From a virus (lineage: Duplodnaviria; Heunggongvirae; Uroviricota; Caudoviricetes): 16,062 bases of DNA. This document shows positions 1,751 to 3,142 of the stretch, one piece after another (positions within the stretch are counted from its first letter, which is position 1; every line of letters begins with the position of its first letter). Below the pieces are notes generated by a model that saw nothing but the letters and a program-made list of their open reading frames with translations, ran no database searches and was not told the origin of the DNA. The translations under genes and the position numbers were made by a program. The stretch lies in the IMG/VR virus record IMGVR_UViG_2698536355_000012, positions 1 through 16,062 of that record, one strand, 5' to 3'.

Positions 1751-2320
1751 TTACTCTTCGGTGCTGGTGGGCACCAGTCGCTGCCAGATAGCAGAAACAT
1801 ATTTGGCCTGGTGGCGGGCGTCGGCCAGCGCGTTATGCACCTCACCATCAAACGGCATATCCCGCTTCGGGTCGAAGCCAATAGCGCGACCGAGGGTCAC
1901 CATCGTGCGCACGTCCTGATCGTTCCAGAATTGCCAGGGGCAAATATGGCCGGCACGCTCGTATGCGCCTCGAATAATGACGTTGTCGAAGTTTGCGCCG
2001 TTGCCCCACACCTTCAAATATTTCGGGTTGTCCGCGTGACGGTTGATGAAGTGGCTCAACTCGGAAAGCGCTGCATCTACAGGCATAGCATCATCAGCGC
2101 AAATCGCTGCTCTGGCTTCCGGGCTTTGCTTCATCCACCAGATGATGGTGTCACCGTCAGGAACCGCGCCTTGTGCCATTGCACTTTCGAGCTGCACGGC
2201 CGTGTAAAACTCTTCGCCCAGCGCGCCGCTCTGCGGGTCAAACAACACGGCACCGATGGAGACAATTGGCGCCTTTGGCTTGTTACCCATGGTTTCGAGG
2301 TCGATCATTAAGTGGTTCAT
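1751..2320 (-). CDS. DEDDh-type 3'-5' exonuclease (DnaQ-like fold)
   Basis: 189 aa. Motifs MIDLETMG (Asp-x-Glu), WGNGANFD and H-N-A-L-A-D-A are consistent with exo I/II/III of DEDDh exonucleases. RBS-like AGGAT upstream of ATG 2320. Confidence 0.75.
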   Translation of the reverse strand: MNHLMIDLETMGNKPKAPIVSIGAVLFDPQSGALGEEFYTAVQLESAMAQGAVPDGDTIIWWMKQSPEARAAICADDAMPVDAALSELSHFINRHADNPKYLKVWGNGANFDNVIIRGAYERAGHICPWQFWNDQDVRTMVTLGRAIGFDPKRDMPFDGEVHNALADARHQAKYVSAIWQRLVPTSTEE

Positions 2321-2865
2321 GCTGATTTATCCTGTTTCTGTGTAGCGGCTATTGCGCATGCTTCTACTGCTTTTTGGTAGATGAGTTTTATTGTCGGCCA
2401 GTCAATGATCTGATCTTCATTCCAGTCGCCGCGCCCATCACAATCACTGCAACCGTCGCCGCCACACTCAGGACAAGTAACGGAACGGGGTATGCTGAAC
2501 TCACCAGATAAAGCACGTTTCGCGCCATTCTCCGCAGTCAGCGTTACAGGCATGATGCAGTATCCATCCGGAATTACCGGATAGTTGCTACAGCGCACTT
2601 CGCCTGTTTTTGATAAAGAATACAGCGCTGGCGCTGTCTGGATCGACAGCTCATCAGCTTTCCGGCGCTGCTGAAGCTCAAGAGTCATGGCTTTGACCAC
2701 TTCAGGCGGTGCGTATGTGTCGTTCAGGTCATCCCACAAATCGCACATCTTTTTGCTGTTATCGGGGTGAACATCGTCATTAGTGCCAGCCAGTGCAGTA
2801 AGTACCTCGTCAGCAGCTTCAATGATTTTTTCCAACTGACTGTCTGTTAGGTTGTTATTGGTCAT
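2317..2865 (-). CDS. Ea22-like modular early protein with C-terminal Cys-rich zinc-ribbon-like motif
   Basis: Start placed at internal ATG 2865 (MTNNNLTDSQLEKI...); the listed ORF 2317..3033 is treated as an upstream run-on. Shares the MTNNNLT N-terminus and an LELQQRRKAD segment with the adjacent gene. C-terminus contains CPECGGDGCSDCDGRGDW. Confidence 0.55.
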   Translation of the reverse strand: MTNNNLTDSQLEKIIEAADEVLTALAGTNDDVHPDNSKKMCDLWDDLNDTYAPPEVVKAMTLELQQRRKADELSIQTAPALYSLSKTGEVRCSNYPVIPDGYCIMPVTLTAENGAKRALSGEFSIPRSVTCPECGGDGCSDCDGRGDWNEDQIIDWPTIKLIYQKAVEACAIAATQKQDKSA

Positions 2866-3142
2866 TTTTAATGTCTCCGGCATGGCAATAGTGCCAGCCC
2901 TCCGGGTGTGTGGTAGTTTTTCCGCAGCGAGGGCAGGTAATTTTGGGGTTTGCAGCTTCCAGTGCCCTTTGATAATCGCGATCGGCATTACGGCGCTGCT
3001 GAAGCTCGCGCAGGGCACAAATAATTTGGTCATACTCCCGCGCGTTACCCTCCCAGCCCTGATGTCGGCAGCGGTTGGCGCACAGCTGCATTTCTTCGGC
3101 GAGGCCGTTCAACTCTTCTTCTGTCAGGTTGTTATTGGTCAT
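2855..3142 (-). CDS. Ea22-like small early protein with Cys/His cluster
   Basis: 95 aa, starts MTNNNLTEEEL, contains RELQQRRNADRD and a CPRCG...H...CH cluster. Strong AGGAGG about 10 nt upstream of ATG 3142. Overlaps the downstream gene by 11 nt. Confidence 0.6.
   Translation of the reverse strand: MTNNNLTEEELNGLAEEMQLCANRCRHQGWEGNAREYDQIICALRELQQRRNADRDYQRALEAANPKITCPRCGKTTTHPEGWHYCHAGDIKNDQ

Follow-up and report, generated by a model that had tools for sequence, protein, structure and literature searches.

Adjacent early genes of an enterobacterial prophage share a short leader and an intracoding joint at which modules have been exchanged

Ea22 is a tetrameric protein that biases the lysis–lysogeny decision and favors lysogeny. 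Proteins of the Ea22 type share a layout, in which a short N-terminal segment is followed by a coiled coil and by dissimilar, mosaic C-terminal domains, and they are encoded in the early leftward operon (PMC10834534; PMC7093339). They also carry a C-terminal K/R-G-E tripeptide (PMC7093339). Short conserved boundary sequences have been modeled as recombination joints of lambdoid phages (Susskind and Botstein 1978; Clark et al. 2001; summarized in PMC3029335), and in the mycobacteriophages Island3 and Brujita a repeated gene end is accompanied by a deletion or insertion between the copies (PMC3029335). Here we analyze two adjacent genes, termed A and B, in 16,062 nucleotides (nt) of caudoviral DNA (IMG/VR record IMGVR_UViG_2698536355_000012, positions 1 to 16,062; this whole stretch is called the window). 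A preliminary description had treated them as Ea22-like genes with a duplicated 5′ end. We find that A and B have in common two short sequence islands, a leader and a joint, and that related prophages begin or end their homology with the window at these islands. The two genes and the islands are located as follows.

Gene A, 2855..3142, minus strand: 95 amino acids, with leader, helical N-module, ELQQRRNAD joint, and C-terminal Cys/His zinc-knuckle-like module.
Gene B, 2317..2865, minus strand: 182 amino acids plus stop, with leader, three-helix N-module, ELQQRRKAD joint, disordered linker, and Cys4 C-module.
Leader copy of A, 3120..3142, minus strand: ATGACCAATAACAACCTGACAGA, encoding MTNNNLT; homology with locus L077 ends here, and the TGA in ATGA ends the upstream HNH gene.
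Leader copy of B, 2843..2865, minus strand: 22 of 23 nt identical to the copy of A; it also encodes the last codons and TAA stop of A (11-nt overlap).
Joint copy in A, 2981..3007, minus strand: GAGCTTCAGCAGCGCCGTAATGCCGAT, encoding ELQQRRNAD; homology of loci L001 and L004 with A ends exactly at 2981.
Joint copy in B, 2653..2679, minus strand: GAGCTTCAGCAGCGCCGGAAAGCTGAT, encoding ELQQRRKAD; homology of L001 (99.8%) runs from 2679 and that of L077 (98.1%) from 2678.

Both minus-strand open reading frames (ORFs) begin with MTNNNLT, as had been described, and the window holds exactly two copies of the 17-nt sequence AGGTTGTTATTGGTCAT that underlies this identity (2849-2865 and 3126-3142). Two matches to it were never obtained in 200 dinucleotide-preserving shuffles. 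The repeat extends to 23 nt, of which 22 are identical (2843-2865 and 3120-3142). The LQQRR(K/N)AD segment that had also been noted in both proteins corresponds to a second direct repeat, the joint, which spans 27 nt with 24 identities (2653-2679 and 2981-3007) and encodes ELQQRR(K/N)AD. Outside the leader and the joint, similarity between A and B is undetectable by shuffle tests of DNA and protein and by BLASTP. Between the islands, the DNA alignment score is 3.5, compared with 6.4 ± 2.4 for codon shuffles; the protein score is attained in 308 of 2000 shuffles; and BLASTP aligns only residues 1-16 of the two proteins. What A and B share is therefore a leader of seven amino acids and a joint of nine that bracket two different N-modules, and not the conserved N-terminal module that the preliminary description had proposed.

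To speak of a "duplicated 5′ end" is to suggest that one ancestral gene was duplicated in tandem and that the copies then diverged, leaving the islands as last remnants. A and B are indeed adjacent and co-oriented, in both the leader is followed by helices, the joint, and a Cys-rich end, and a weak local similarity exists at TCP(R/E)CG in both C-termini (score 42 vs. 22.8 ± 4.4; 7 of 2000 shuffles reach it). Such a history should leave evenly decayed sequence, whereas two near-identical islands (96% and 89%) are found with no detectable similarity between them. The modules also occur singly elsewhere at nucleotide identities of up to 97.6%–99.8%, and the C-modules of A and B come from different, widely distributed module families. 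Because the similarity is confined to the islands and each module moves independently, tandem duplication is decidedly unlikely, and recombination at boundary sequences is the more probable explanation.

Four groups of related loci are informative for mapping breakpoints.

L001-L003, Escherichia coli prophage: protein P0002 (165 amino acids, on 31 contigs), which consists of residues 1-51 of A joined to residues 68-182 of B.
Segment missing from the single-gene allele P0002 of L001-L003, window 2680..3007 (equivalently 2653-2980), minus strand: 328 nt, one repeat period.
L004-L006, Enterobacter lignolyticus-type phage: protein P0122 (59 amino acids), the N-module of A alone, in a different operon and adjoining a DNA methylase.
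L077: protein P0003; matches window 3556..3120 (HNH gene and leader, 94.5%) and 2678..2253 (98.1%), with an unrelated third N-module between them.
L078: protein P0005; a 12-nt leader core, a fourth N-module, a joint identical at 26 of 27 nt, and the C-module of B from 2578 onward.

In L001, positions 6136..8814 match window 2679..1 at 99.8% identity, and positions 5911..6162 match window 3232..2981 at 90.5% overall, with two mismatches between leader and joint. These two alignments overlap only on the 27-nt joint. The joint of L004 is identical to the copy in B at 31 of 31 nt (2679-2649), and L004-L006, whose operon is otherwise unrelated to that of the window, carry the N-module region of A with 97.6% identity along a stretch of exactly 165 nt (3145..2981). 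The 12 nt ATGACCAATAAC are identical before four different N-modules, which a protein search had revealed. Natural recombinants with breakpoints on the islands are thus present in L001-L003, L004-L006, and L077, and the short identities (22/23 and 24/27 nt) are flanked by nonhomologous sequence. It is at the leader and the joint that related prophages gain or lose homology with the window, and modules have been exchanged there in register. The modular shuffling envisaged in the preliminary description, which had called for such an alignment of related loci, is borne out. The P0002 allele equals the window minus one 328-nt period, and its simplest origin is a crossover between the joint copies, as a deletion in a parent resembling the window or as the reverse insertion.

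An ORF listed at 2317..3033 is open and would yield one longer protein of 238 amino acids that overlaps A. The preliminary description had already favored the shorter gene B over this ORF. The part in question is the following.

Upstream extension of the listed 238-amino-acid ORF, 2866..3033, minus strand: noncoding in that frame.

None of 366 homologs carries the 56-residue extension upstream of 2865, and relatives with the N-module of B start at the equivalent MTNN or MTTIT position. The protein identical to B (P0001, 182 amino acids) is found on 38 contigs, and the gene call in L011 likewise has 182 amino acids. The 168-nt extension overlaps the frame of the C-module of A, which is conserved in >20 protein clusters, and a GGAG lies 9 nt from the ATG at 2865 compared with 1 nt from the ATG at 3033, a poor Shine-Dalgarno spacing. 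The homolog N-termini, the independent gene calls, and the conservation of the A frame throughout 2866-3033 support 2865, and not 3033, as the translation start of B, and the 238-amino-acid ORF is best regarded as an artifact. We reject the longer protein, to which we give almost no chance.

Taken together, A and B are probably separate, cotranscribed, and translationally coupled accessory genes of a mosaic family whose modules have been swapped at the leader and the joint. The exchange would occur by homologous recombination between the short conserved boundary sequences, either in mixed infection or between resident prophages. Four points weigh against this explanation. The joint peptide is kept with different codons in distant relatives (ELQERRKAD, ELQEYRKA), and for this reason the joint may be retained for its role in the protein, with crossovers there being incidental. 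The window was not found to contain a recombinase gene. The window and L001 differ upstream as well (the HNH genes are 78% identical, and a 234-amino-acid gene stands against one of 275 amino acids), so the two prophages are not simple parent and offspring and the event may have run in either direction. Finally, no significant structural neighbor was found for the AlphaFold2 (AF2) models, which are of moderate confidence (predicted local distance difference test [pLDDT] scores of 71.9 and 75.8).

The first of these points leads to the possible, if clearly less probable, explanation that the islands are kept for function and the breakpoints are secondary. An A-rich leader could serve translation initiation and start/stop coupling, and ELQQRRKAD could be a protein motif. 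Both alternative frames of the leader ATGACCAATAA contain a stop codon (A-TGA and GAC-CAA-TAA), each used by upstream genes at different loci. The joint peptide persists in distant relatives with other residues and codons, and it lies inside the predicted helix 54-77 of B. Against function alone, synonymous positions are identical as well, the same 12 nt stand before four N-modules, and the breakpoints of L001, L004, and L077 fall exactly on the islands. Functional conservation of the islands is compatible with their use as joints and is plausible as a contributing rather than an exclusive cause.

The stop codons of the leader are used as follows. The upstream gene ends at the leader TGA in the window (HNH gene/A), in L001-L006, in L015, and in L018-L022, and at the leader TAA in the window (A/B), in L013 (a gene of 336 codons), in L023, and in L025. 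At many loci the preceding gene ends in ...AAMLQGG(K) and a stop codon, and the GGAGG therein is the Shine-Dalgarno sequence of the next cassette.

A reading that goes further takes the leader and the in-frame joint to be selected, portable sites of cassette exchange, a diversity-generating system for early phage effectors, akin in logic to tail-fiber or shufflon cassettes. With its own TGA and TAA stops, the leader would permit translational coupling to whatever gene lies upstream, the joint would let N- and C-modules be swapped in register, and exchange might be stimulated by phage recombinases or by the neighboring HNH nuclease. We regard this reading as doubtful. Speculative, and highly improbable, is exchange driven by the endonuclease itself, whereby the upstream HNH enzyme would cleave the DNA of related phages close to the leader or joint and neighboring modules would be copied during repair of the break. 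The HNH gene does abut the cassette in the window, in L001-L003 (as a 139-amino-acid variant), and in L077, and identity drops sharply around it. The leader is not beside an HNH gene in L004 (where a 217-amino-acid unknown protein is encoded), in L078 (methyltransferase), or in L013-L025 (ea-type genes), and because of these loci HNH-driven exchange is not general across the family.

Recombination at the two boundary sequences, the explanation that we prefer, would have produced genes assembled from the following modules.

N-module of A, 3008..3119, minus strand: residues about 8-45; moves as a unit.
Zinc-knuckle-like C-module of A, 2882..2938, minus strand: TCPRCGKTTTHPEGWHYCH, a mini-module of ~20 residues.
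N-module of B, 2680..2842, minus strand: residues about 8-62 (...ALAGTNDDVHP...LWDDLND...).
Linker of B, 2590..2652, minus strand: residues 72-92, predicted to be disordered; pLDDT <50 at residues 77-93.
C-module of B, 2320..2589, minus strand: residues 93-182, with CPECGGDGCSDCDGRG; four invariant Cys encoded at 2440-2475.

Judged by sequence, A and B are members of a large unnamed mosaic family, in which a leader MTNN(N/Q/K)LT is followed by a variable helical N-module, a joint ELQ(Q/E)RRKA(D), and a variable C-module. In 13 viral contigs, at least five different N-modules follow the leader, and the MTNN(N/Q/K)LT start recurs in many relatives, in agreement with the earlier expectation that the shared N-terminus would be kept. 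Among 119 clusters homologous to B, 73 have only its C-module, 10 only its N-module, and 36 both; the ends of the local alignments pile up at B residues 55-60 and their starts at 91-96. The N-module of B is joined to other C-terminal parts in epsilon15, epsilon34, ES18 gp38, and SPN3UB Eaa, at 67%–71% identity, and that of A is joined to the C-part of B in P0002. A protein identical to A (P0121) is found on 39 contigs, and the gene call in L011 also has 95 amino acids. Distant clusters (P0124, P0125, P0126, and P0144) hold proteins of 86-95 amino acids with the same full architecture, which makes A a complete member of the family rather than a remnant.

A scan of IMG/VR with an exact 17-mer of the joint returned 53 matches, of which only three (L014, L017, and L048) are family members; the rest are chance matches in GC-rich contigs. 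A leader scan of species-representative genomes gave eight matches, of which only L080 and L084 are real. The former (6496-7566, plus strand), on a contig titled Chryseobacterium sp. 18061, encodes a 356-amino-acid protein in which an exact copy of the leader is combined with a B-type N-module (MTNNNLTECQLERIIECADEVLSALAGTNEDVH...) that is typical of enterobacterial prophages. This occurrence may reflect contamination or mislabeling of the Chryseobacterium sp. 18061 assembly.

The two proteins end in different Cys/His clusters, as the preliminary description had stated, and only part of each cluster is conserved in relatives. Among 22 proteins with differing N-parts, the C-module of A has invariant C70, C73, T77, H79, P80, E81, and G82 and nearly invariant W83, H84, Y85, and C86. 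This module is attached to at least 20 different N-parts, three of which score above the Pfam Ead_Ea22 cut-off, and it is a putative single Cys/His zinc knuckle. A homolog search with the 41-amino-acid C-terminal part of A as query gave no candidates. A match to the YnfU family of zinc-binding proteins (NF038384) covers only residues 56-80 of A at 18.3 bits (E = 0.0013), below the curated cut-off of 36 bits. The ∼90-amino-acid C-module of B is found on >100 other protein clusters. Its C131, C134, C139, and C142 are invariant among relatives, with an AF2 pLDDT of 80-93 across the Cys loop, and D100, G101, P106, L109, T110, N113-K116, W156, and K160 are, like these Cys residues, among its nearly invariant positions. 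In the AF2 model of B, helices 8-26, 34-51, and 54-77 precede the linker and the C-module, and the joint is inside the third helix. Cys residues in the N-modules of A and B were dropped as metal sites; relatives do not conserve them.

These features allow a tentative picture of how the proteins might work. Early after induction or infection, the helical N-part would act as a scaffold or as an oligomerization element and display a small zinc-binding C-module to a target of host or phage origin. A might bind one Zn via its Cys/His knuckle, and B might do so via a Cys4 knuckle at the tip of a β-hairpin packed on a long helix. This proposed layout of scaffold and C-module is the one described for Ea22.

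Two further candidates in this region were set aside. The plus-strand ORF 2852..3160, antisense to A, is not regarded as functional. Just past the joint of B, in the linker-coding region (2622-2637, minus strand), a palindrome ACAGCGCCAGCGCTGT followed by ATTCTTTATC was scored as terminator-like, and its sequence is kept in L001 and L077. This site at 2637..2622 is probably nonfunctional; over positions 1-9500, promoter-like and terminator-like sites show no clear excess over shuffled controls.

The window represents part of a lambdoid-type enterobacterial prophage in the integrated state, and A and B lie in its leftward early accessory operon. The neighboring genes are as follows.

Tyrosine integrase (int), 1..1176, minus strand.
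Small xis-like ORF, minus strand: between int and the LexA gene in chain order.
LexA-DNA-binding-domain protein, 1337..1744, minus strand.
Rv2179c-like 3′-5′ exonuclease, 1751..2320, minus strand: Pfam PF16473, E = 1.7e-74; downstream from B, with an ATGA overlap.
HNH endonuclease, 3139..3522, minus strand: Pfam HNH at 23.4 bits (cut-off 21.4), phrog_2118 at E = 2.2e-57; upstream of A, with an ATGA overlap.
Beyond the HNH gene, minus strand: a 234-amino-acid protein, a 71-amino-acid protein, an HD-family deoxynucleoside monophosphate phosphatase (YfdR-like), a DUF2303/YfdQ protein, and a YfdP-like protein.

The minus-strand order is int, xis-like ORF, LexA-domain gene, exonuclease, B, A, HNH, and further genes to YfdR, YfdQ, and YfdP, and the genes of this chain are joined by overlapping start and stop codons (ATGA or 11 nt). 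A cI-type repressor and replication genes lie on the other side of the operon. The YfdP-YfdQ-YfdR genes match annotated counterparts in E. coli prophage regions. Scans for Rfam families and tRNAs found none in the window. When 2100-3700 and 1-6400 were compared by megablast with 5,426 complete RefSeq E. coli genomes, the A/B region was unmatched, and the matches, all partial, were confined to the yfdQ/yfdR and int regions at 76%–86% identity; this prophage is missing from that collection of genomes. Despite this negative result, proteins identical to A and B are labeled E. coli on 38-39 contigs of draft or third-party annotation assemblies.

The HNH gene is itself a mosaic hot spot, encoding 127 amino acids in the window and 139 in L001 (5585-6004), with only 78% identity over 128 nt; around it, the window and L001 are 96% identical farther upstream (3837-8954) and 99.8% identical downstream. 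In the 234-amino-acid ORF upstream (3519-4223, minus strand), residues 119-214 match the PADLOC model "DpdH" (PDLC02890, E = 1.5e-39) and residues 114-226 match phrog_18739, and Pfam gives no match. This ORF has a coiled-coil-like stretch, EAQRRIAELETENE, and its C-terminal ...KVGE resembles the Ea22 K/RGE tail. Klebsiella phage 37P2 gives a megablast match to window 3156-3532, comprising the HNH gene and the 3′ end of the 234-amino-acid ORF, under the features "HNH endonuclease" and "Ead/Ea22-like protein"; either gene may bear the Ea22 label. A 665-amino-acid DNA-methylase-like ORF (11022-13019, plus strand) has 87.7% DNA identity to the L004 methylase (6434-8413) that adjoins the P0122 gene. 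The orientation of the methylase relative to the N-module of A is opposite in the window prophage and the L004 phage.

The description of A and B as Ea22-like holds in part. As a statement of family membership it fails: Pfam PF13935 (Ead_Ea22, IPR025153; gathering score 27 bits) has no match in A, B, or the 238-amino-acid ORF at E ≤ 0.1, and the positive controls, lambda Ea22 and ES18 gp41, score 100.9 and 148 bits. BLASTP with lambda Ea22 gives a best E of 11 against B and no alignment with A at E ≤ 100. Neither protein has the K/R-G-E tail; A ends in ...IKNDQ and B in ...QDKSA, and relatives that carry the C-module of A on Ead_Ea22 scaffolds end in KREGE or KREAE. The layout of a short N-terminal segment, a helical region, and a variable mosaic C-terminal domain is present in A and B, as a resemblance of layout and not as homology. 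Their niche, an early leftward operon between recombination/exonuclease genes and xis-int, is that of Ea22. Moreover, the C-module of A is the C-terminal domain of proteins that do pass the Ead_Ea22 cut-off (P0128, 63.9 bits; P0129, 48.4 bits; P0141, 28.8 bits). Annotators have named proteins with the modules of B as Ea22, EaA, Eaa, DUF550, and DUF551, and the "Ea22" of PhiR47_1, which has the C-module of B, likewise fails PF13935. By these comparisons, the term "Ea22-like" is valid for architecture, niche, and a common pool of C-modules, and not for family membership.

Set beside Ead/Ea22, A and B are alike as early, nonessential-type genes of the leftward operon near int/xis with a helical region and a mosaic C-terminal domain. 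They differ in that their N-part is another scaffold, with the MTNNxLT leader and ELQQRRKAD joint and with no K/R-G-E tail. A second comparison is with the DUF550/DUF551/Eaa-type mosaic proteins of P22-like, epsilon15-like, and lambdoid prophages. The N-module of B heads DUF551 and DUF550 proteins, the linkers EPVAW, PAPVVPDGY, and ACRAAMLQ are common to them, and their genes form tandem arrays in which the AAMLQGG tail of one provides the Shine-Dalgarno sequence of the next. Neither DUF550 nor DUF551 is present in A or B. Pfam and NCBIfam scans of the two proteins gave nothing above cut-off, PADLOC models gave no match at E ≤ 0.01, and a sequence search of solved structures gave only chance-level matches (E ≥ 0.1).

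The cysteine-rich domain of DnaJ offers a third comparison. B has two adjacent CxxCxGxG motifs, CPECGGDG and CSDCDGRG, and because of these two motifs database sources name some of its relatives "molecular chaperone DnaJ" or "zinc finger-like." B differs from DnaJ in having only two directly abutting repeats (C-x2-C-x4-C-x2-C) instead of the four that form two zinc centers, and no J domain. Neither Pfam nor NCBIfam gave a DnaJ match to B at E ≤ 0.1, and DnaJ structures were absent from the fold-search matches.

A fourth comparison is with boundary sequences. To our knowledge, most phage mosaic boundaries have no conserved sequence, and the role of short boundary sequences is still debated. This locus is a compact and testable example, with two defined joints, one of them intracoding, and at least three natural alleles recombined in register. 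It also links an unannotated MTNNxLT ... ELQQRRKAD family to the C-module pool of Ea22-like proteins, a link that could help to find the targets of small, putatively zinc-binding early proteins. Current understanding is unchanged by these results, which refine annotation and supply a model locus: boundary-sequence mosaicism is a known phenomenon, of which this unannotated family provides a clear and well-documented but ordinary example. As in the boundary-sequence model, 12-31 nt are conserved between unrelated segments and breakpoints lie on them, and Island3 and Brujita are directly analogous. The locus differs from the model in that one joint is formed by the first seven codons and not by an intergenic linker, and the other is placed inside the coding sequence at a domain junction, where exchange yields in-frame protein chimeras.

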